Of a stretch of 64,000 nt of DNA, positions 18,416 to 47,416 are shown piece by piece. The notes under the pieces are model-generated. The model was given only the letters and a program-made list of their open reading frames with translations. It was not told the DNA's origin and ran no database searches. A program made the position numbers and the translations under genes. This DNA comes from Thermoplasmatota archaeon. GTDB lineage: Archaea; Thermoplasmatota; E2; JACPAO01; JAHFTW01. Position 1 is the stretch's first letter; each line of letters starts with the position of its first letter. The stretch covers positions 160,001 to 224,000 of the forward strand of contig JBFIHX010000003.1 of assembly GCA_041601615.1 (NCBI GenBank), in the 5' to 3' direction.

Positions 18416-20608
18416 ATGACACGGTCGGCGCTCGTCGTACTCGTAATCTTGCTGCTCCCCTCCACCCTCGTGGTCCCCGCAGGCGCAGCCGAAGTCCGAG
18501 CCAGCCTATTCACGGACGCCACCGGAGACGTGCAAATCCAAAGCGCCGACGGCGGCGTCTCCCAAGCCGACCCCATGTCCAGCGACAACCTCGACCTCGT
18601 AGGCGGAGGAATCTGGGCCGAAACCGACACCACCGTGACCTTCTTCGTGCACCTTGCAGGCCTCTCCGAAAACAGCCAAGGCGCCCCCTTCACCGACCCC
18701 GACTACACCCTCGACTTCCGCTACCACGGCCAAGGCTACCGCATCAGCATCGTAACCGCCCTCGGCAACCCCATCAACGACGCCTTCGGACGCGACACCA
18801 CCCAAGGCTGGCTGCAAAAAGAAGTCGGCCCCGGCCGCTACCAGAGCGTCGTCGACGCCGAAACCGAACTGGACTTCTCCGAAAACGTCGCCCGCGCCAC
18901 CGTGCCCCGCGACGCCATCGTAGACGAAAACCAAGCCCCCCTTGCCCGCAACGCCACCCTCACCGACGTGCGCGCCACCGCAAGCGCCCTCGGCTTCTTC
19001 GGATTCCCCGTATCCCTCGACGGCAGCGGCTCCGGCCCACGCGTCGGCGCCCCACGGTTCTTTGATCAAGCCCCCGACACAGGCCTCGGCGGCACCTACA
19101 CCATGACCACCGGACAAGTGCGCCAACGCGGCGCCCTGTTTGCCGTTAGCGACGACCCCGTACGCTGGACCAACGGAGAAGCCACCACCCTCACCTTCAC
19201 CGCCCGCCTCACCAACACCGCCAGCAAAGACATGCCCGTCCACGTCACCACCAGCAACGTCGACCCTTCCTGGCAAATCGCCTTCAGCGACGCCCTCACC
19301 GTCGGCGCAGGCCGCAGCATCAACGCAACTCTTCTCGTCACCATCCCCTTTGTGCACCAACACGGAATCCTGCGCCAATTCAACGCCGAATTCACCTCCA
19401 CCGACGGGCAAAGCCTCGCCGCCGTCCCCCTCGGCATCTACTGGGCCGAAGTACCCCAACCCGCCGGCCACCACGACACCGTCTGGTTCCACGGCCTCAC
19501 CCAAGAAGTCACCCCGCCCTTCAACGCCGTCTTCGGCGGCACCCACGGATGGTTCAGCGCCAAAGAAGAAGTAGACGGAGACGAACGCAAACCGATCCCC
19601 GCCAACTTCGCCATGGTGCCCAGCCCCGCCACCAACAACCGCGGCATCGCCTTCTGGAGCTTCAGCCTCGAACCATCCCTACGCATGGGCCTCGACTTCC
19701 TCCTCGACGAACAAGGAGCCGCCGACATCACTCTCGACCTCGCGACCCCCGCCCTCGACCCCAGCATCAAAGTCCAAGTCTACTACCTCGAGCAACGCGC
19801 CCTCGACACCGGCGACAACCGGCCCGGACAACGCAACACCATCACTGAACGCACCCTCCTAGCCGAAGGCGTCAGCGAAGTCAAAAGCGGCACCATCAGC
19901 GGCCCCCAACTCTTCGAAGTGCCCATCCAAGCACTCGCCGAAGCCGAAATCATCCCCTACGGCGGCGACGGCAACCTGTACATCCAAGTGCTCCTCGACA
20001 GCACCTTCCTTCTCGGCACCGGCTTCGTCGCCAACGACGCCACCGCACCCAGCCTCGATCCACTCGCCTCCCGCGTGCGCCTCCCCCTCGAAGAATACCA
20101 CGACCCCGTCGACCTAAGCTTCCAAACCGACGGCAGCCTCAGCATCAAAGCCGGCCCCGACGGCCAAGACCGCCTCATCAACCCCGGCCGAACCATCGTC
20201 TACACCTTCGACCTCACCTACGCAGGCGCCTCCCCCGCCACCTTCCAAGCCCAACTCAGCGGCGCCAACGTCCAATGGGCCACCATCCTCGGCGACAAAC
20301 AGTTTGACCTAGCCCCCGGCGCCCAACGCAGCCTCGCCGTCTCCGTCCACGCCCCAGACGACGCCCGCGAAGGAGACGCAAGCGACCTAACCCTACGCGT
20401 CACCAACACCGCAAACGCAGCCATCCAAGCCGGCATCAACCTACGCACCCTCGTCACCACCAGCCAAGACATCCCAGACGAAGCCGGACGCGGCAGCGAA
20501 CTCGACGGCGAACTCAGCCAAAGCAAAGAAAGCCCCGGCCCCGGCCTTGTCCTGCTCCTCGCCGCCGTTGCTGCCCTGGCCATCGCCCAGCGCCGACGCC
20601 GCAACTAA
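18416..20608 (+). CDS. Cell-surface protein, His-motif family member 3, with an extra Ig-like domain and ESPG tail
   Basis: Signal peptide; FTDATGDV; PFVHQHG; QPAGHHDTVWFH; LEPSLRMG; LPLEEYHD; ESPGPG-hydrophobic-RRRR; CCCTTAT ~26 bp upstream. Confidence 0.88.
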   Translation: MTRSALVVLVILLLPSTLVVPAGAAEVRASLFTDATGDVQIQSADGGVSQADPMSSDNLDLVGGGIWAETDTTVTFFVHLAGLSENSQGAPFTDPDYTLDFRYHGQGYRISIVTALGNPINDAFGRDTTQGWLQKEVGPGRYQSVVDAETELDFSENVARATVPRDAIVDENQAPLARNATLTDVRATASALGFFGFPVSLDGSGSGPRVGAPRFFDQAPDTGLGGTYTMTTGQVRQRGALFAVSDDPVRWTNGEATTLTFTARLTNTASKDMPVHVTTSNVDPSWQIAFSDALTVGAGRSINATLLVTIPFVHQHGILRQFNAEFTSTDGQSLAAVPLGIYWAEVPQPAGHHDTVWFHGLTQEVTPPFNAVFGGTHGWFSAKEEVDGDERKPIPANFAMVPSPATNNRGIAFWSFSLEPSLRMGLDFLLDEQGAADITLDLATPALDPSIKVQVYYLEQRALDTGDNRPGQRNTITERTLLAEGVSEVKSGTISGPQLFEVPIQALAEAEIIPYGGDGNLYIQVLLDSTFLLGTGFVANDATAPSLDPLASRVRLPLEEYHDPVDLSFQTDGSLSIKAGPDGQDRLINPGRTIVYTFDLTYAGASPATFQAQLSGANVQWATILGDKQFDLAPGAQRSLAVSVHAPDDAREGDASDLTLRVTNTANAAIQAGINLRTLVTTSQDIPDEAGRGSELDGELSQSKESPGPGLVLLLAAVAALAIAQRRRRN

Positions 20609-20684: not shown

Positions 20685-21215
20685 TCAAGCCACGTCGATG
20701 CCTTCCGGCATCGCCGGGCTCGGATCCAACAACTCCGTCAGACCCTCGTCCGCAAAGTAGCGATTCGTTTGCAAGCCCTTCTGCTCCGCAACCAACCCCG
20801 CATCCACAAGGGGCGCAATGCTGGCACGGAACGTCTTACGAGAAACACTCACCGCAGTACAGACATCCACCTGACGACTGCCCGGGTGATCTTGGATGAA
20901 GCGAGCAATCTCCTGGCGGCGACCCTGATTCAAGACACCCATAATCTGGGCCCGCTCAGGATCAATGCCGCCCACGAAAAAGCGGCGCTCGCGGCCCGCA
21001 GAAACCGCCGTCACAAGGTCGCCCTTGTCAAGTAGCGCAAGGTGGTACTGCACCGTACCCCAAGCTTCCCCGGACTCCCTGCACAAAGCACTGGCATGGA
21101 TTCCAGGCCGAAGCTGGATCAAATCTAGGATACGACGGCGCACCGGCTGGGCAAGCAGTGCATCAGGGTCCGCGTCATGAACCCGAGCAAACAGCATCAA
21201 CAGTGCCTCGAACAT
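20685..21215 (-). CDS. Double winged-HTH transcriptional regulator (stand-alone)
   Basis: LLAQPVRRRILDLIQLRPGIH...GTVQYHL..L followed by a second HTH (RQEIARFIQDHPG). Confidence 0.85.
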   Translation of the reverse strand: MFEALLMLFARVHDADPDALLAQPVRRRILDLIQLRPGIHASALCRESGEAWGTVQYHLALLDKGDLVTAVSAGRERRFFVGGIDPERAQIMGVLNQGRRQEIARFIQDHPGSRQVDVCTAVSVSRKTFRASIAPLVDAGLVAEQKGLQTNRYFADEGLTELLDPSPAMPEGIDVA

Positions 21216-21236
21216 CCGGGGCTCCCATCCACCTTC

Positions 21237-22754
21237 TCAGGTATAACCGTGTGCGTCGCTCTCTAGAGCTTGCGCCATGGAAGGGGCCGGAGCGACGTAT
21301 CCAGGAACCTGGTCTGCCAACGCGGGCGTGCGCTTCACGGCCTCCGCAAGGGCCGACTGGGCCCGGTTGTTCTTGCCCATGTCGCGGTACGCAAGGCCCA
21401 GGACATAGTGCAGGGTGCCATCGGAAGGGTCGTTGCCGTTGAGGTACGACTCAAGATTGCGAACGACACGCTCAGGCTGCCCCGTGCGAGAGAGGGCAAT
21501 GGCGCGACCCAGATGTGCGCTCTCGCGCTTCGGGTCCTCGCGTAGAATTCGAGTAGCAAGCCGAGCAGCACGCGTGAACGCACCTGCCTCCAGCGCCTGC
21601 TCCATGTACTCCAAGGGAGGAGCCACGTCGCGGCGTGAACGGATGATGAATGCGATGGCCGCCCCAAGAACGAGGAGAGTCACGATCGGCCAAGCCACGA
21701 ATCCCGCGGGCTTGTACCAGGAAGAAGATTGTCCGAATCCCTCGTTGGAGCTGCTGGAGAAATCCATGCCCAAGCGGTGGGAATCGTCCGGAACGAGCGT
21801 GCCCGAGTACCCCTCAGTAAAGAGGAGTTCAGACTCGTGCGAGCCATCCACTCCATCGTACGAAATTCGACCGTTGTCGCCGTTCACTTCGACGTCCTCG
21901 GATACCCATTGAACGATGTGGTTGATGCCGCTGAGTCGAATGCGGAGATCGCCGTCCGTGACAATCAGTCGAAGGTGCGATTCGCGGCCCTGCGTGACTC
22001 CACCAACGAGTTCTGTGTGGGTCAAGCCCGTATCGTAGGAGTTGGGCGCCGTGTCATCGGAGTCCAAGTTCACCGTGGGGCCCAAAATCTCGAGAATGAA
22101 ATCGCCGAGAATGCGAGCATCCACGACGCCGCCGATGGTCTCCGTGAGCACCGTGGGCTCCGTAATGGAGCGGCGCAAGAAGGTTCGCGTATCTCCGGTG
22201 GACGCCGAGTCTTGATCAACAGAGTTCGGGTCGCGCTCCACGAGTCCTTCCGAGGTGGAAAGGAACTGCGCTTGCGGAAGGGAAGAGTAGTTGCTGACGC
22301 CGCGCACCATGCTGTGGATGGTGCCGCCTTCGCCATTGCGGCTGATGCGCACATCAAAGGATGGCGACGAGCCCTTGGATTGGAGTGTGATGCTGTTCAG
22401 TGGATTTGCTTCGCTAGCGATGGACTCTGAAGGGTCAAGTGGCGTTTGTTCCGGGAGATTTGCCTCCACGGGACCAAGCGTTCCGTTTGCAGATCGCAAG
22501 TAGGTCCGCTCGAGGTAGTGACCCCAACCGCTTGCGGCGGAGAGCTCCAAAAGAGGCGCGCCGTAGCCGTCCTCCGCTGCGATACGGAACAAGCCAAGAT
22601 CTCCTTTCTGCTTCATGACTCCGTGATGCTGCATGGCAGTGGCATCCTCCGAGAGAATGTCAATTGCCTTGGCTGCGTCTACGGAAGGTGCTGCCATAAG
22701 AAGCACCGTGAGAAGAACGGTGGTGCGGATGACAGGGTTTCCTTGACGTAGCAT
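21237..22754 (-). CDS. Single-pass membrane protein with an N-terminal ectodomain and a C-terminal TPR domain
   Basis: Signal peptide, ~350-aa beta-rich region, TM (WPIVTLLVLGAAIAFII), then TPR-like helices (AHLGRAIALSRTG; LHYVLGLAYRDMG..A..AL..AV...P). Confidence 0.8.
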   Translation of the reverse strand: MLRQGNPVIRTTVLLTVLLMAAPSVDAAKAIDILSEDATAMQHHGVMKQKGDLGLFRIAAEDGYGAPLLELSAASGWGHYLERTYLRSANGTLGPVEANLPEQTPLDPSESIASEANPLNSITLQSKGSSPSFDVRISRNGEGGTIHSMVRGVSNYSSLPQAQFLSTSEGLVERDPNSVDQDSASTGDTRTFLRRSITEPTVLTETIGGVVDARILGDFILEILGPTVNLDSDDTAPNSYDTGLTHTELVGGVTQGRESHLRLIVTDGDLRIRLSGINHIVQWVSEDVEVNGDNGRISYDGVDGSHESELLFTEGYSGTLVPDDSHRLGMDFSSSSNEGFGQSSSWYKPAGFVAWPIVTLLVLGAAIAFIIRSRRDVAPPLEYMEQALEAGAFTRAARLATRILREDPKRESAHLGRAIALSRTGQPERVVRNLESYLNGNDPSDGTLHYVLGLAYRDMGKNNRAQSALAEAVKRTPALADQVPGYVAPAPSMAQALESDAHGYT

Positions 22755-22759
22755 ACGAA

Positions 22760-23248
22760 TCAGTAGGTTTGGATGTAGATCCGGCTGGGTTTGTTCTGCT
22801 TGAATACTTGGGCGAAACCATCGAGGTCGGTCTCCGGTACAAGGGACCAAATCGTTTCAAGGTTCACGCAAGCGTCCAGATTGTAGACGACAAGGTCCGC
22901 GATGATGCTCGGGACCAACGCTACAGGACTGTAGTAGGTCACGGCCGAGAGGACCGAGTAGATGTTTGCGAGATTCAAGGTGATGCAGGTCGGTTCCTTG
23001 TTGCTGGAATCGTCGTATGCTTCGGGGTTGTTCGTGAGAATCTGAACGTCCCCGACTTGGACCATGGTTGCACCAGACATGCATGGTCCAAACTCGGTAC
23101 AATCGTCCGTGAAGAGGTCCACATCAATGAAGATGGGTTGGAGGTCCACTCGGAGCTCTGTTAGCTCCATGGGCTCCGCCTGGACGGGGGCCGCCACAGC
23201 CAAGAGCATGAGTGGTATGAGCGCGTTTCTGACACCGATTCGGGACAT
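22760..23248 (-). CDS. Hypothetical secreted protein with 4 Cys
   Basis: Signal MSRIGVRNALIPLMLLAVAAPVQA; ends 5 bp before the TPR gene. Confidence 0.65.
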   Translation of the reverse strand: MSRIGVRNALIPLMLLAVAAPVQAEPMELTELRVDLQPIFIDVDLFTDDCTEFGPCMSGATMVQVGDVQILTNNPEAYDDSSNKEPTCITLNLANIYSVLSAVTYYSPVALVPSIIADLVVYNLDACVNLETIWSLVPETDLDGFAQVFKQNKPSRIYIQTY

Positions 23249-23789
23249 GGAATCCACCTGAACAAACCGTCGATGGATGCGGCCGGGTAAAAGTGTTCGC
23301 GACGTATCCGCGGTATCTAGTGATATTTGGCTCATCTATCGGCCCAAAAGCACCATATCGGCCCTAAAGAACTGGATAATGCAGAACCTCCCCGTCTGCT
23401 TTATGCCATTGACAGTCATGGAGGCGCTGTAAGGCCGTGTGCTTGGCGCCGTTCTGGTGCTAGGCAGTACACGACAACCACCCACCACCACCAATCGCTT
23501 TGAACTTTCAAAGCGCACCATCGCGGCCTTACGTTCCGGGGCGGGGGCTTGCCTCCGTCCCGGGGCCCAAACTTTGTGATTGCCTTCGTGCAAATGTTGG
23601 CGTTTTGACCTCATGCGCGCTTAGACGCGAGCTGGGTGGATGCTCCGCTGGTTGCTCGTGGTGCGGCGCGACTTGTGGCGCGGGCAGGGTCCCGTCGAGG
23701 ACGGAATGAGAAAACAAAGGTAGAGGGAAGGGAAAGGACGGCGCAGCGCGCCGGATACGAAATCGGAAAGCGAAATCCGAGCAGTGCGC

Positions 23790-24428
23790 CTATTGGCGTC
23801 GCTTCTCGGCTTGCTTTTCCTTCTTCCAGATCAGCTTGTCCTTCTGGCGGCGACCGGACTTGGCAACCGAAGGACGCAGGTGCTCGGCACCCTTACCCTT
23901 GTTGCCAACAAGGCCACGGTGCTTCTTACCGGCGCTGGTCTTGCCGCGCAGCACACGGTTGGTGGCCGGGCGGGTGCAGATCCAGGACAGGTCCTTGTCG
24001 GCACGGATGCTGGGGTGGAAGGGGTCGACGAGGATGACCTCGTAGTAGTGGTGCTTACCGTCGGCACCGACCCAGTAGGAGTTGAGAACTTCCAGGTTCG
24101 GGAAGTGCTTGCTGGTGCGCACTTCGGCGATCGCCTGGGTGTTCTGCTTCATAGTGATCTTCTTGACACCCATCTTGCTGGGCACACGACCACCGTCGAA
24201 GCGCTTCTTGCGCAGACCACCGCGGCGAACGCGGGCGCGCACGACGATGACGCCCTGCTTGGCCTTGTAGCCGAGGTTGCGGGCGCGGTCGAGGCGCAGG
24301 GGCTTGTCGACGCGAACGAAGGATTCACCCTCACGCCACTCAATCAGACGGTGCCACTGGGGGCTGTCGTGACTGGTGTCAGGTTGTTTCCAAGCTTCTC
24401 CGATGTAAGAATATGCACTCTTGCTCAT
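23790..24428 (-). CDS. rpl15e: 50S ribosomal protein eL15 (L15e)
   Basis: AYSYI..AWK, RLDRAR.LGYKAKQG, NLEVLNSYWVG.DG, YEVILVDP, RG.TSAGKK.RGL motifs; SD GAGGTGA at 24436-24442. Confidence 0.97.
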   Translation of the reverse strand: MSKSAYSYIGEAWKQPDTSHDSPQWHRLIEWREGESFVRVDKPLRLDRARNLGYKAKQGVIVVRARVRRGGLRKKRFDGGRVPSKMGVKKITMKQNTQAIAEVRTSKHFPNLEVLNSYWVGADGKHHYYEVILVDPFHPSIRADKDLSWICTRPATNRVLRGKTSAGKKHRGLVGNKGKGAEHLRPSVAKSGRRQKDKLIWKKEKQAEKRRQ

Positions 24429-41097: not shown

Positions 41098-42177
41098 TCA
41101 TCCGTTCATGGCGAGGCTTCCGAAGTCGAGGTAGAATACGGCGTCCACTTGCGCGGGGTGGTCTTCGTAGCCTCGGGTTCGCTTGTGGATGCCGCTGTTG
41201 GATTCGTTTACGTCCTCGGAGTTTTTCAGGTGGACTTGGAGGGAGCTGTAGTCGCCGTCGGCCAGCACGTCGTAGGCGGCGTCGCCGTGGGCTTGGATGT
41301 TGATGCTGGTGTAGTCGGCGGCGATGGACCAGGTGCCGCCGGCGGGGGCGGTGCGTAGGGCGAGTTCGCCAAAGTCCATGGCGACATCGAGGTCTTCGAG
41401 GCCGATGGCGTCTGCAAAGAGAATGGCGCTGTAGTCGCCGGAGATTTCCAGTTCGGACCAGGCGAGGGGGCCGGAGGCGAAGGCGCTCATGTCGGCATTG
41501 AGGGCGAGTGTGTAGAGCAAATGGTTGGGCACTTCGATGCGCAAGTCGTAGCTGAGGTCTTCGCTGGGTTCGAGGCCGCTGCCGACGGGGAGTCCGTTGG
41601 CGGGTGCATGGCGAACATAGGTGCCCAGAGACAGGGTTTCGTCGGCGAGGGTGTCGTCGTGGATGACGGTGACACGGTCCATGCCGTTGCGGGCTTGTGC
41701 TTCGGTGCTTGCTTCCACATCGAGGTCGAAGGTGTAGGTGTAGCTGCCTACGTTGGCGCCGACGACGGTGACGTTGGCGAAGTCTACGGTGAGAAGGATC
41801 TCCGCGAGGAGGGCGTCGCCTACGCCGTTTTTGAGGACGATGCGTTTTTCGGCCACATAGCCGCCATCGTCGCCGGGGCGGGCCGTGGTTTCGCCTTCGG
41901 TGCGTTGTACGTCGCCGTGGGGGTCGCGGGGGCCGGTTTGGCGGCCCGATTTGGAGTCGGTTTCCGTGTCTGGCGATGTGGGTTCGGAGGGCGGTGTGCT
42001 GCCGGATTGGCCGGCATCAGGGGCGCTGTGGGTTTGTTCGTCTTCGTTGCTGCCGGGGTCGGTGTTTGTGCCTTCATCGGCGGTGCCGTTGTCCACGAAG
42101 GAAGGCGAGGTGCAGCCAGCCAGCAGGAGAGTGCAGGCCAGTAGGAGCGCGAGGGTGGTGGGGGTTTGGGGGTGCAT
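41098..42177 (-). CDS. Lipoprotein with a degenerate DUF4097-like beta-repeat domain
   Basis: Lipobox LLAGC; low-complexity linker; C-terminal region aligns with the neighbouring gene (GTWSI, YD..AD, H.RT.GY). Confidence 0.72.
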   Translation of the reverse strand: MHPQTPTTLALLLACTLLLAGCTSPSFVDNGTADEGTNTDPGSNEDEQTHSAPDAGQSGSTPPSEPTSPDTETDSKSGRQTGPRDPHGDVQRTEGETTARPGDDGGYVAEKRIVLKNGVGDALLAEILLTVDFANVTVVGANVGSYTYTFDLDVEASTEAQARNGMDRVTVIHDDTLADETLSLGTYVRHAPANGLPVGSGLEPSEDLSYDLRIEVPNHLLYTLALNADMSAFASGPLAWSELEISGDYSAILFADAIGLEDLDVAMDFGELALRTAPAGGTWSIAADYTSINIQAHGDAAYDVLADGDYSSLQVHLKNSEDVNESNSGIHKRTRGYEDHPAQVDAVFYLDFGSLAMNG

Positions 42178-43622
42178 CAGTTCGACCCCGCGTAGATGTC
42201 GGCGGTGCTTGTTTCGAGGGTGATTTTGGTTTTGATGGTGCGGCTGTCGTAGCCATTGGTGCGTACATGTTTGTGGTCCTCGTCTTGCTCGCCGACGGGG
42301 CTGGTGTCGTCGAAGTCGAAGGTGATGTCGCCCGTGCTGGTGTCGGCGGCGGCATCGTAGCCGCGTTGTGCGTCGGAGGGGGCGTTGATCTGGATGTCGC
42401 CGGTGCTGGTGTCGATGTTCCAGGTGCCGCTTGCGGTTGCGCGAAGGGTTGCTTCAATGTCGCCGGTGCTGCTGTCGATTTCCAGGTCGTTGGTGGTGCC
42501 TTGGAGTGTTACGTCGCCGGTGCTGGTGTCGATGCTGAGGTCGGAGACGGTGAAGCCGCTGAGGTCGATGTCTCCGGTGCTTGTGTCGATGCTCCAGGTG
42601 GTGCCGGTGAAGGTTCCGACGTTGATGTCTCCGGTGCTGGTGTCCACGGAGAGGGTGGCGAGGTTGCTTGGCGAGAGTGTGAGCGTCATGTGGGCCCACT
42701 GGTTGCTCCATTGTTGGTTGGGAGTTTGCACGGAGGCTGTGAGGTCGAAGGCGCCGTTGTTGGTGCCGGCGTCGTACCGGGTCGTCATGGCGGAGAGGTT
42801 GTTGCGGGCTTCTTGTTCGGTGTCGCCGCGGGCTCCGAGGTTGATGATGAGTTTGCTGCCGGTGCCTTCGTTGCTGATGGACACGTCGCCCACGGGGACG
42901 GCAAGGTCGATGTTGGCGGTGTCTACGGAGACGGACTCTTGGTAGGTGTCGGTGCGGCGGGCGACCCAGCGGCCGTTTTCTTGGGATACCGTGACCGAGC
43001 CCTTGTTGGATTGGCCCTCGCTGCCTGCTTGCGTGGAGGAGCCGTTTGGTGCGGGGGAGTCTGCGTCCTTGAAGTCGAGGGTGACGGTGCTGCTGCCGTC
43101 GGTCATGAAGGTGTAGCCGTATGCGACGGAGGCGGATTGCGGACAGACACAGACTTCCAGAACAATCTCGGAACCGGCGGGCCAGTTGGGCGTGTCGAGG
43201 TTCATGCGGGGGTTGTTGTCCGAGGCGCTGGCGACTTCTTTGCCGTCAATGAATAGCTTCGATGCAAACTGGGGCGCTTGGCCTATGATGGGCTCCAAGT
43301 GGACTTGCAACGAGACGAGCAGCGGGCCGTCGAAGACGAGGTCGCGTTCGGGGGCGGGGCGCAATGTGAAGCGGATGTTTTGGGGGGGATTGGCGGCCGT
43401 GCCGCTGCCGGTGAGGGCGGTGTCGGTGGCGTCTTCGTCGGCGTCCATCCACTGCCCAGCGCCGTCAGAGTGTAGGTATAGTGTTGCGTTGCCTGCTCGA
43501 AGTCCGGTGGTTGGTTCCGTGGCCTGATCGGAGACCTCCTCCGTGGGTGTTTCGGGAATGTCGTCAAAGCAGCCAGCAAGCACGGTGGCAAGCAGGAGGG
43601 AGGTCAAAAGCCAGGGGCGCAT
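42177..43622 (-). CDS. Lipoprotein with DUF4097 (adhesin-like) beta-strand repeats
   Basis: Lipobox VLAGC; about six copies of D(T/S)STGD(I/V). Confidence 0.82.
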   Translation of the reverse strand: MRPWLLTSLLLATVLAGCFDDIPETPTEEVSDQATEPTTGLRAGNATLYLHSDGAGQWMDADEDATDTALTGSGTAANPPQNIRFTLRPAPERDLVFDGPLLVSLQVHLEPIIGQAPQFASKLFIDGKEVASASDNNPRMNLDTPNWPAGSEIVLEVCVCPQSASVAYGYTFMTDGSSTVTLDFKDADSPAPNGSSTQAGSEGQSNKGSVTVSQENGRWVARRTDTYQESVSVDTANIDLAVPVGDVSISNEGTGSKLIINLGARGDTEQEARNNLSAMTTRYDAGTNNGAFDLTASVQTPNQQWSNQWAHMTLTLSPSNLATLSVDTSTGDINVGTFTGTTWSIDTSTGDIDLSGFTVSDLSIDTSTGDVTLQGTTNDLEIDSSTGDIEATLRATASGTWNIDTSTGDIQINAPSDAQRGYDAAADTSTGDITFDFDDTSPVGEQDEDHKHVRTNGYDSRTIKTKITLETSTADIYAGSN

Positions 43623-43757
43623 GAATGGAGCGATGCTTCTTGCATAAAAAGGAGTCTGGGCGGACATTCGAATTCATAATTTTTTGCGCCGCTGCCGGAC
43701 TGGATGTTCGCACGTCTCGTCCACAAACCCTTAACCCTTGGAAAACGCGGTGCCATT

Positions 43758-44851: not shown

Positions 44852-47305
44852 TTAGGTGGCTGCGGGCGCAAACGTCCCAAGCGCCAATCGCCCCGTCTCG
44901 GTGGTGTGTAGCGCCAGGAATCGTCCTTGGCGAACTCCATCGATGAGCCCGGCTTCTGTGAGTTTGCGCAAGTGGTAGTTGATGGTGGAGGGCGCCATGC
45001 CGAGTTGCGCCGCGAGGTCCTTGGCTACGGCTCCGGGTACGGCGGTGACGGCCTGCAGCACCATGCGCGCCCCGTCGGATTTCAGAAGAGGTGCTGCGGC
45101 CATGACGCGTCGGTCAATCTGGCCCTTGGGAAAGTAGCAGGTGAATCCTTTGTCGGATCGCTCCACCAATAAGTCGCTGCCTACGAGCTTGCGCACATGG
45201 TGCTCCATGGTGCCCCTTCCTTTGCCGAGGCGTCGCACCAGTTCTTGAAAGTGGATACCGGGGTCGCTGCTGACGGCGGCCATGATGTCGTTGCGCACGG
45301 GGTGATCCAAGAGGTCTGCCTTGGCAATGCGGCTGAACAACCCAACACCGCTTCCGGCCTTCAGAGCCGCTACGACGAAACTCAGGAGGGTAACACCCGC
45401 TGCTGCCCCGGCCAGGGCGCCTATGGTCTTGGGCTCCGGCCATTGCCACACTCCCTTGGTGGCGGCGTGGCGGTTCCACGGGTCGTTGGCGTACGGCGTC
45501 CATGTTTCGTCTTGAAATTGGGGTGCCGGGTCGCTCGCGTCGCCATGCACCGCAAACAGCGGGCGGCCGTCGGCTCCCACGAGCAGTGTTTCGGCGGAGG
45601 CTCCATTGCCGTCGGTGACCCAGAATGCGCCAGTGGAAAGATCGAAGCTGTAGCCCGCGGCGGCGTGCCCTGTGGCGACTTGGAACCGGTGGAGTTGGCT
45701 CGTAGCACTTGGCATCGTGGCAGGAAGCCGGTTGGGGCGTGGCAAATCGCCGCTGTCGGTGGCGGTTGCCTTGGTTTCAAGGGAGTGTTCGCGCCAAGTG
45801 CGGGCTTCGCCTCCGAGGATGCCGGTTTGGGTGCGGCCGTGCAGGGTACTGGTGACGACGCGAGCGCTCGTGCCGTCCGTGAGGGTGAAAGTCCACGTTT
45901 CCCAGCGTTCCGGCTCCGTGTTCGGTTGCGTCGCTGCTCTCTCGCGCACCGTGGCCGAGGCTTGGACGATTTGGGCGTCCGGGTGGGCTTTGTACCAGTC
46001 GGAGAGGGTGTCCGTGACGGCGGAGTCGAAGGCGCGGGATAGGGGCCAGTGCAATGGCACGCCGGTATCGTCGGGGCCCCACGCAGTTCGGTCGGCCACA
46101 GCAGGTGCGATTGCCGGGTGCGAGGGGTCGTGGTGTAGGGTGGGTCCGGAACCCGCCGCGTACTCGATGAGTTCGTGCATGACGTACAGCGTCGGTTGCT
46201 TGGCGTCGCCTGCAAGCGCTTGCACTTCGGCGGGCACGACGTCGGGCAAGCGGTCGAGGATGCGCACGGGGTACGCCACGTCGTTGGCAAACCACAGGCG
46301 CAGGCGGTCGCTGTCGGATTCGAGTGCGTATACGGTGGTGTCGCGCTCGCCCACGCGGTCGGTGCCGCTGACTTTCATGCGCAGCGGCCCGGACAAGAGT
46401 TCGCTGGCGCCAAAGTCGAGCGCAATGGGTGGCGGGCAGGCGCCGTGCACTTCGATGACGTTCCAAATCGGTACTCCGGTGCCTTGCAGGTCGTGGCGAA
46501 AGCCGCAGGGCCCGTCGATGGGCATGGCTTCCGTCCAGGTGGGGTCGGCTAGGCCTGCGAGCGCGGGGGCAAGTGCCGCAGGAGGTGTTGTTTCGCTCGG
46601 TCGGAAGGTGGCGGCGAATCCAGTGCTCTGGGCGTCGTGGTGGCTGACTTGCCACGGGGTTTCTTGGACGCGGTGCACGGGGGCGCCGAAGAAAATCCAC
46701 TCATCGTCGTATCCTTCCCATTCTTCGGCCCAGGCAAGCCAATCAGCGTCCCATTCGGCCCACGCCATGTCGTCGGCCCATTCTTCCCAGTCATCGCCCC
46801 AGGCATCCCAAGCGTCCCCATAGTTGTCCCAGCAGTCCTCCCATGCTGCTGAGCCTGAGGGGTACCCGGAGCAGTCGATGGTGGGCGTGCCGGGACCACT
46901 GGGGCCACCTGGAAGGCCGGGAATCACGGGGCCTTGGGGTGCCTGTGGGACTTGGAAATGGTTCTTGAGGTCCGCCTCGAACGGCTCCGTTTCCCATTCG
47001 GCAACAAAGCTGCGCGCCCAAGTGGGGTCGCCGTTGCGGTCGAGGACGAAGCGGTCCAGGGTGCGCTCGAAAGCATAGCGTGCCTCCATGTCGATCCACT
47101 CGCCTTTGCCGTGGATGTCCACGATGACGAGTGCCGTTTTGTAGAGCCCCGCGTCGCCGACTCGGCTCGGCTCGGTGCCTACTCGTTCGGGCGCGCCGCC
47201 GGGGCCGCCTTCTTCAAAAAATCCGTCTGCTGCAACCAAGCTACCGCTCAGAAGGGCCCAGACGACGAGGCCCAAGGTGATTTTCGACGCGGAAAGCGCG
47301 CCCAT
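44852..47305 (-). CDS. Membrane-tethered transcription factor: large ectodomain, TM, cytoplasmic double winged-HTH
   Basis: Signal peptide; ~600-aa ectodomain; TM (IGALAGAAAGVTLLSFVVAAL); LFSRI...LLDHPVRNDI...PGIHFQEL; second HTH LAAQLGMAPSTINYHLRKL..AGLI. Confidence 0.85.
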   Translation of the reverse strand: MGALSASKITLGLVVWALLSGSLVAADGFFEEGGPGGAPERVGTEPSRVGDAGLYKTALVIVDIHGKGEWIDMEARYAFERTLDRFVLDRNGDPTWARSFVAEWETEPFEADLKNHFQVPQAPQGPVIPGLPGGPSGPGTPTIDCSGYPSGSAAWEDCWDNYGDAWDAWGDDWEEWADDMAWAEWDADWLAWAEEWEGYDDEWIFFGAPVHRVQETPWQVSHHDAQSTGFAATFRPSETTPPAALAPALAGLADPTWTEAMPIDGPCGFRHDLQGTGVPIWNVIEVHGACPPPIALDFGASELLSGPLRMKVSGTDRVGERDTTVYALESDSDRLRLWFANDVAYPVRILDRLPDVVPAEVQALAGDAKQPTLYVMHELIEYAAGSGPTLHHDPSHPAIAPAVADRTAWGPDDTGVPLHWPLSRAFDSAVTDTLSDWYKAHPDAQIVQASATVRERAATQPNTEPERWETWTFTLTDGTSARVVTSTLHGRTQTGILGGEARTWREHSLETKATATDSGDLPRPNRLPATMPSATSQLHRFQVATGHAAAGYSFDLSTGAFWVTDGNGASAETLLVGADGRPLFAVHGDASDPAPQFQDETWTPYANDPWNRHAATKGVWQWPEPKTIGALAGAAAGVTLLSFVVAALKAGSGVGLFSRIAKADLLDHPVRNDIMAAVSSDPGIHFQELVRRLGKGRGTMEHHVRKLVGSDLLVERSDKGFTCYFPKGQIDRRVMAAAPLLKSDGARMVLQAVTAVPGAVAKDLAAQLGMAPSTINYHLRKLTEAGLIDGVRQGRFLALHTTETGRLALGTFAPAAT

Positions 47306-47416
47306 GATGCCTTGCAAAGCAATCGACAGGCAGGTTCAGGCTTCAAGATGCTTTTGGGACGACCACTGGATTGGGCCGCGACAACCCTTAAGCCCTCCAA
47401 GGCAGGCTCCCCGTCG

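Follow-up and report, generated by a model that had tools for sequence, protein, structure and literature searches.

A conserved three-gene cassette in an uncultured Thermoplasmatota archaeon with a predicted kinase-free, membrane-based control of transcription

We analysed a 64,000-nucleotide stretch of DNA from a Thermoplasmatota archaeon (hereafter the window; assembly GCA_041601615.1, contig JBFIHX010000003.1, positions 160,001 to 224,000; G000:C3:160001-224000 in our numbering), whose genome comprises 2.79 Mb and is 93% complete. The window contains, on its minus strand, a cassette of three genes that we call A, B and C. Gene A (22760-23248) encodes, from an ATG at 23248, a small signal-peptide protein of 162 amino acids with four cysteines, a candidate ligand or co-receptor; gene B (21237-22754) encodes a receptor-like protein of 505 amino acids; and gene C (20685-21215) encodes a soluble double winged-helix (wHTH) protein of 176 amino acids, HVO_0163-like and likely an activator. 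By open reading frame (ORF) coordinates A and B are separated by 5 bp and B and C by 21 bp, and the tight co-directional packing described in a first-pass annotation of the sequence is real in its ORFs, its gaps and its domains. The three genes are also covered by contigs from four marine metagenome runs of a single study, one of them possibly the source, and among the differences from the window listed for these contigs all lie beyond position 23860. The runs listed as containing this DNA are marine metagenomes, with no RNA run among them. The cassette is real and conserved, and it likely represents an undescribed kinase-free control by sequestration at the membrane in uncultured Thermoplasmatota, with a mechanism that is predicted. 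No published description of it was found in the literature searched, which excludes most subscription journals and supplements.

A and B both start with hydrophobic stretches resembling signal peptides. In B this is followed by an all-beta outer region (about residues 30-345), a single further membrane helix at 353-371 and the residues RSRR, three tetratricopeptide repeats (TPR), a linker of freely varying length with a predicted local distance difference test score (pLDDT) below 50, and a terminal Gly-Tyr-Thr. The TPR domain (residues 376-483; 21306-21629, minus strand), predicted to bind the recognition helix of C, has its repeats at 387-478, matches TPR_19 above the cut-off, and by structure search matches a three-repeat TPR fold (Z 15.8, root-mean-square deviation 2.0, 109 aligned). 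Membrane proteins generally keep their positive charges inside; from this rule and the signal peptide, B would be oriented with its N-terminus out and its C-terminus in, placing the TPR in the cytoplasm. The ectodomain modelled by itself from a single sequence reached a pLDDT of 29.7, and structure searches of PDB, viral and Atlas sets returned only TPR or matches of low template-modelling score (searches with the full length being filled by TPR), so neither novelty nor kinship of its fold is demonstrated. A family scan found no histidine kinase or receiver domain in A, B or C, with 21 HATPase_c matches elsewhere in the genome.

The C protein matches PF24266 HTH_HVO_0163_N (48.3 bits against a curated cut-off of 31), HTH_24 and HTH_20; Pfam and NCBIfam return winged-helix families only, with no sigma-70 regions 2 and 4, and the family scan gave no LytTR match in the cassette proteins. 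No membrane helix is found in C, the DNA-binding domain and the membrane helix being on separate chains. From the HTH profiles we take its first recognition helix to lie at about residues 50-65. About 40 full double-wHTH paralogues are encoded in this genome. A Trp opens the recognition helix in 10 of 14 receptor-adjacent regulators vs 17 of 47 others (p 0.03, among kin that are not independent), a comparison made on a quick tree with three rows probably misclassed and to be taken as a lead.

It had been claimed that the upstream two genes differ in codon style from their flanks. The G+C content at third codon positions (GC3) is 0.72 in A, 0.68 in B and 0.65 in C (about the 26th, 13th and 8th percentiles of 1808 genes), which upholds the claim weakly; however, C deviates most, A has the GC3 of the flanking GTPase gene (0.72), and A is low in total GC alone (0.55). 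Recent horizontal transfer, considered from codon style, is unsupported, and the cassette keeps its setting across relatives: nusG precedes it in 17 of the 20 regions fetched, and the same GTPase gene follows it in 18 of 19 among the regions listed (both gene names were read from the sequences, not from a family search).

Among the genomes compared, B was matched in 25 of 31 of the family, in two of six others of the order and in none of 23 of the wider class. A phylum-wide profile search (301 genomes) matched 11, all but one within the order, the taxonomy of these wider relatives resting on one source label ('Thermoplasmata archaeon', one relative). The sole match outside the order, L134 (G106:C2), is a receptor of the ectodomain family that lacks the Tyr tail and is followed by a double wHTH. 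C orthologues were found in 25 of the 31 family genomes and lie directly after B in 24 of the 25 with B, the exception being a contig end; a survey of the three-gene synteny, proposed in the first-pass annotation, gave B-C adjacency in 24/25 genomes, and an A-type gene, recognised by position, at 20/20 testable loci. Identity among relatives is 46-91% for C and 34-83% for the B tail, and 23-26% for the whole of B in 16 of 20 relatives; a variable B with a conserved tail and C fits a variable input and a fixed output. In G008, nusG abuts the GTPase gene, and A, B, C and the motif and RNA described below were all not found there, whereas in G018 the contig ends just past the cassette promoter, so the absence of the cassette there is an assembly gap. 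The receptor family is expanded in this lineage: B orthologues form 94 clusters at 50% identity, and this genome has 17 unfused receptors of the B family. Seven paralogous receptors here (B included) have a free double wHTH as their immediate downstream neighbour. Another paralogous receptor lies close to the left edge of the window (G000:C3:158350-159867), ending in Gly-Tyr-Ala, with a cysteine gene upstream and no adjacent double wHTH.

Gene A behaves differently by sequence and by position. At all 20 testable receptor genes (the 21st is at a contig edge), the start of B adjoins the end of a small gene that encodes a signal peptide and at least two cysteines, vs 20 of 281 unrelated secreted-protein genes in the control; the test was likewise positive at 9 of 12 unfused paralogues where it could be applied. 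The trio is therefore a unit conserved in its gene positions, the first gene evolving fast, and A is the positional homologue of these cysteine-loop genes. Homology in sequence between A and the other cysteine-loop genes is not significant. At L048 (G024:C5:145000-160000) the A-B pair is duplicated in tandem before one C; two cysteine loops are present in each of the secreted proteins, and the RNA core was not found.

We modelled the complex of C with B(372-505), using a 24-row alignment for each, three runs and three controls. The model reached an interaction prediction score from aligned errors (ipSAE) of 0.64 (runs 0.64, 0.58 and 0.65), the best of the three controls giving 0.01; the runs share at least 87% of contacts, with partner pLDDT of at least 79. 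In calibration, 116 of 157 solved pairs attained the mark set for this score, as did 2 of 215 mismatched ones; these figures are only rough here since our own alignments were used. The predicted contacts centre on C residues 50-58, where its first DNA-recognition helix begins, with E411, L415, D445, G446, T447, T476, A478 and L479 of B, which are nearly invariant; according to this prediction the TPR of B clamps that helix. Eight of the 14 invariant tail residues are among the 28 interface residues (Fisher p 0.002), and across the 94 clusters conservation is 0.72 at the interface vs 0.59. No solved structure pairing the TPR and double-wHTH families was found by sequence search. The predicted complex that had been suggested as a check on the proposal that the TPR tail holds the wHTH protein passed its controls. 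The trio is conserved and a TPR-wHTH interface is predicted, two points on which that proposal had been made to depend; on the third, that the TPR is not extracellular, the topology suggests a cytoplasmic place.

The contrary reading is that B is a surface or adhesion protein merely co-transcribed with a regulator, with no B-C interaction. Many family receptors lack an adjacent regulator, and by the complex tool's own account 7 of 44 blind neighbours pass; on the other hand, the pairing is repeated in paralogues, ectodomain-wHTH fusions occur, and the score is 0.64 vs 0.01 in the best control, and we regard this reading as very improbable.

The fusions had been invoked already in the first-pass annotation, as a Rosetta-stone link through the protein encoded at 44852-47317 (minus strand), which is not part of the cassette. 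By sequence and profile comparison, this is a membrane-fused double-wHTH paralogue with an unrelated ectodomain. It shares with C the motifs quoted for both and 28% identity over 149 amino acids (E 2e-11), but several of the roughly 40 genome paralogues are closer to C (E down to 2e-18, vs 3e-8 for the 44852 protein). B and this protein are not similar (best E 0.21), and the ectodomain of the latter gave no B-family profile match at E<=10. As a Rosetta partner it is rejected, sharing the double wHTH alone with C and nothing with B. The argument was right in kind while naming the wrong protein: an iterated ectodomain profile collected 45 proteins from our own ORFs and 20 fetched loci, nine of them fused to a double wHTH, and with the fused rows left out of the profile five of the nine still score (L093 at E 1e-22, four proteins of this genome at 4e-6 to 3e-4). 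Judged by these profiles, B-type ectodomains fused to double wHTH do exist in proteins other than that at 44852.

Upstream of A, we found a 17-bp bipartite motif, TTCGnCAnnnGGGnAAC, in one copy per strand across 21 regions, with an information content of 13.96 bits vs 7.6-8.4 in eight shuffles. The cassette-side copy (23304-23320, minus strand), a candidate C site, lies 11 bp upstream of a putative TATA-like box, TTTTA (23288-23292, minus strand); the inverted copy (23372-23388, plus strand) lies 11 bp upstream of a putative divergent one, TTTAT (23400-23404, plus strand). On the cassette side 18 of 21 regions have a motif score of at least 10 bits, and on the divergent side 17 of 21; a TATA-like word follows after 10-12 bp in 16 of those 18 and after 11-13 bp in 15 of those 17. 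Archaeal activators usually bind upstream of the TFB recognition element (BRE) and TATA box, according to PMC5937170. Position and co-occurrence suggest that C may bind this motif. Two further strong motif-plus-TATA matches in the genome are at G000:C8:26739 and C5:71925; one stands ahead of a gene for a secreted protein that is itself upstream of another double-wHTH gene, and the other has no called gene downstream, possibly another small RNA.

A different arrangement would be that C is a repressor, or that B is a co-activator presenting C to DNA at the membrane, the motif belonging to another factor. About 40 paralogues could serve the motif, and no regulon emerged. Nevertheless, the recognition helix is buried in the predicted interface, as would fit inhibition, and in addition the motif is upstream of the TATA-like boxes and not over them, and it is missing where the cassette is missing (the G008 junction, and G016, with 1.5 kb examined); both variants appear decidedly improbable.

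The divergent stretch beside the cassette holds no known gene, and there we propose a candidate small RNA (23427-23575, plus strand, ends approximate). Its fold, with a z-score of -5.75 (range -1.3 to -6.8 across loci), has a closing stem pairing 23429-23439 with 23522-23532, two inner hairpins, a terminal hairpin at 23533-23566 and an unpaired C/A-rich loop of 29 nt (23467-23495). The closing stem around a long unpaired C/A-rich loop recurs in 14 of 15 loci, where the stem sequences differ and the loop is conserved. MAFFT alignment gave no consensus pairs, and the 98 of 98 paired cells are circular, each sequence being paired by its own fold, so that the variety of pair types alone is informative. 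With a sequence-only model built from 12 loci, 16 of 32 family genomes each gave a single strong match, always at the cassette site and in four cases outside the training set, and there were two weak matches away from the cassette. Rfam gave no match at E<=1 in window positions 23200-23850 and none at the gathering score in five related loci. Regarding targets, a loop duplex scan against 8054 candidate ATG regions gave nothing convincing; the start of C was in the top 1.7%, and those of A and B were not. The loop may resemble an anti-Shine-Dalgarno sequence, as the GGTGG before A and C would suggest; the 3' end of the 16S rRNA was not found in the assembly.

Considering these data, we find it reasonably probable that B acts as an anti-activator that holds C inactive at the membrane. 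The TPR of B would mask the recognition helix of C, according to the predicted interface, and keep it off DNA; an outside cue, read by the variable ectodomain together with the secreted cysteine-loop protein A, would free C; and the freed C would bind the 17-bp motif upstream of both TATA-like boxes and activate its own operon and the divergent small RNA, the likely output. A kinase-free relay with a TPR tail holding the transcription factor, as the first-pass annotation had it, is backed by the conserved gene order and by the complex prediction; the invariant x-Tyr-x tail, the inverted motif pair and the divergent RNA are additions to that annotation. Several observations weigh against this proposal. 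The conservation of the interface is not fully independent evidence, the model having seen the alignments, and the controls left out close paralogues as wrong partners. There is no double wHTH directly downstream of 21 of the 35 unfused family receptors, and only five of the nine fused candidates survive the non-circular test. A scores 0.5 bits against the profile of the other cysteine loops, which is not significant, and its sequence match is confined to one other, same-genus genome (2/38). The link between C and the motif is one of position and co-occurrence only; genome-wide, six motif-plus-TATA matches vs 0-7 in column-shuffled controls give no excess; and the RNA core was not found at cassette loci L046 and L048.

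The release of C might also proceed by intramembrane proteolysis of B, as for RseA and RsiW, in which case a soluble TPR-C complex would be freed and the tail would be a degron or a PDZ ligand; this would be compatible with sequestration. The genome has a PDZ-containing membrane protein with an HEGGH zinc motif, which resembles a site-2 protease, and the fused family members might need cutting to reach DNA. Against this, in the loci inspected no gene next to the cassette was recognised as a protease gene, and membrane-tethered regulators can act unreleased (PMC10269533). We consider such cleavage improbable.

The last three residues of B (21240-21248, minus strand), Gly-Tyr-Thr, form an x-Tyr-x tripeptide similar to the hydrophobic-tyrosine-any (HbYX) tail. 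The penultimate Tyr is present in 94 of 94 orthologue clusters and 20 of 23 more distant family-like matches (background 1.9% of genes), in 17 of 35 unfused and none of nine fused family members, and the full pattern [LVIMGAPFYW][FY]x, taken from PMC3493965, in 90 of the 94 clusters. The tails that keep the Tyr have a median identity of 19%, and therefore the partner is likely a conserved general factor. The tripeptide is not named in the predicted B-C interface. In the family, all of the 23 complete genes for PAN-like ATPases (among 29 loci) code for an x-Tyr-Ala end, and the proteasome alpha subunit keeps Pro17, Gly19 and Lys at 66, pocket residues whose roles are described in PMC3493965 and PMC8907193. 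The tail of B may tentatively be placed in the alpha-ring pocket of the 20S proteasome, where it would couple the release or the reset of C to proteolysis; this is the least certain step of the proposed mechanism. Counting against it, Gly or Ala precedes the tail Tyr in 88 of 94 clusters, a place taken in PAN by Leu, Ile or Gln; the presence of the Tyr tail does not follow that of an adjacent double wHTH (8 of 14 receptors that have one, 9 of 21 that lack one); the HbYX pattern fits about 4% of archaeal proteins (PMC3493965); Pyrococcus PbaA carries HbYX without binding the mature proteasome (PMC3605417); and 6 of 30 generic TPR matches have a penultimate Tyr, four of them sharing one helix-end sequence.

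More elaborate still, and doubtful, is a version that would make the receptor family a new class of archaeal signalling: B would respond to an outside protein ligand, its TPR would mask the winged-helix activator, its tail would dock the 20S particle at the membrane as a signal-gated adaptor, and the freed activator would drive an RNA whose exposed C/A-rich loop controls translation or sponges an RNA-binding protein. Alternatively, the same complex could serve the opposite logic, with B delivering C for destruction: the tail would recruit the proteasome to the membrane and C would be turned over continuously, the signal stopping or starting this turnover. The invariant tail is not part of the named interface and so may be free, the alpha pocket residues Pro17, Gly19 and Lys66 are kept, and C orthologues have tails of varying length, of which 11 of 24 end in Ala preceded by a hydrophobic residue (background 6.8%) and 4 of 24 have a penultimate Tyr (L022, L024, L025 and L026, ending in x-Tyr-x), although these 24 are kin and not independent. 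Furthermore, ATP-independent activators handle peptides or unfolded substrates and not folded proteins (PMC3605417), and the small residue before the Tyr may not open the gate, which leaves this delivery unlikely.

Some separate observations concern tails and proteasomes. Unrelated multi-TPR proteins (P0113, P0118, P0128 and P0145) end in Leu-Ile-Tyr-x, two scanned ones having a trypsin-like domain. At G000:C4:12011-15504 the proteasome alpha gene is arranged back to back with another, paralogous cassette of three genes in which the receptor has no Tyr tail, an arrangement that may be chance. At G000:C13:63-1519 two further proteasome-family genes, both divergent, stand in tandem in addition to the main alpha and beta genes.

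RseA with sigmaE and RsiW with sigmaW are pairs of a sigma factor of the extracytoplasmic function (ECF) type and a single-pass anti-sigma factor. RsiP and DdvA are of this kind as well. As in them, a one-pass membrane protein is predicted to mask the DNA-reading surface of a co-encoded factor without a kinase, positive autoregulation is likely and many paralogous pairs occur per genome; unlike them, C is a double winged-helix protein and not a sigma factor, and the cassette has a TPR holder, an N-out/C-in orientation, a third, secreted gene and the terminal x-Tyr-x. Archaea are not known to have sigma factors. The kinase-free passing of outside signals to archaeal genes is poorly known, and the cassette would be an anti-sigma analogue made from other parts.

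In Bacillus subtilis, RapF buries six of the seven DNA-binding residues of ComA (PMC3246441). Here too, a helical-repeat protein would bury the DNA-binding helix of an activator, with a small secreted product in the system; however, RapF is soluble and senses an imported peptide and ComA is a response regulator (PMC3246441), whereas the TPR of the cassette is membrane-anchored behind an ectodomain, C lacks a receiver domain and A is a 162-amino-acid cysteine protein. The RRNPP or Rap-Phr plan of a soluble TPR receptor with a short imported peptide does not describe B, with its signal peptide and membrane helix, nor A, with its 162 amino acids. LytTR regulatory systems share an operon of regulator and membrane inhibitor, a basal off state and a repeat motif just upstream of the promoter (PMC6193735); in the cassette there is no LytTR domain, the inhibitor has a large ectodomain and TPR, the gene order is reversed and the motif comes as two inverted copies, one for each of the divergent promoters. 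The single chain of transmembrane transcription regulators (PMC10269533) is seen in the 44852 protein and the fused family members and not in C. VtrA/VtrC and ToxR/ToxS likewise have a fast-evolving outer-partner gene packed against the receptor gene (PMC9214523, PMC10269533), but in the cassette the DNA-binding domain is a separate protein, and the VtrC-type outer partner is lipocalin-like and pairs with the receptor as a heterodimer while A is known from sequence alone. Like the HbYX partners PAN, Cdc48, AMA and PbaB (PMC3493965, PMC3605417, PMC8907193), B would carry its terminal tripeptide on a flexible tail; unlike them, it is a membrane receptor with no ATPase or known ring and with Gly or Ala before the Tyr. 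By analogy, the cassette appears to work like anti-sigma factors, LytTR regulatory systems and Rap anti-activators, yet it falls outside each of these classes. Its residue-level predictions lend themselves to tests with soluble proteins alone. Were the tail to dock the proteasome, a prokaryotic membrane receptor would here be serving as a proteasome adaptor.

Two other neighbourhoods of the window deserve mention. The gene at 18416-20608 (plus strand) encodes a secreted protein of 730 amino acids that carries an Ig-like FixG_C domain and, at its C-terminus, a membrane anchor (a weak MYXO-CTERM match); both here and in several relatives this gene is convergent with the cassette, and it has five paralogous matches in the genome. 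Additionally, two lipoprotein-like genes lie in tandem at 41098-43667 (minus strand), one of them with a DUF4097 match.

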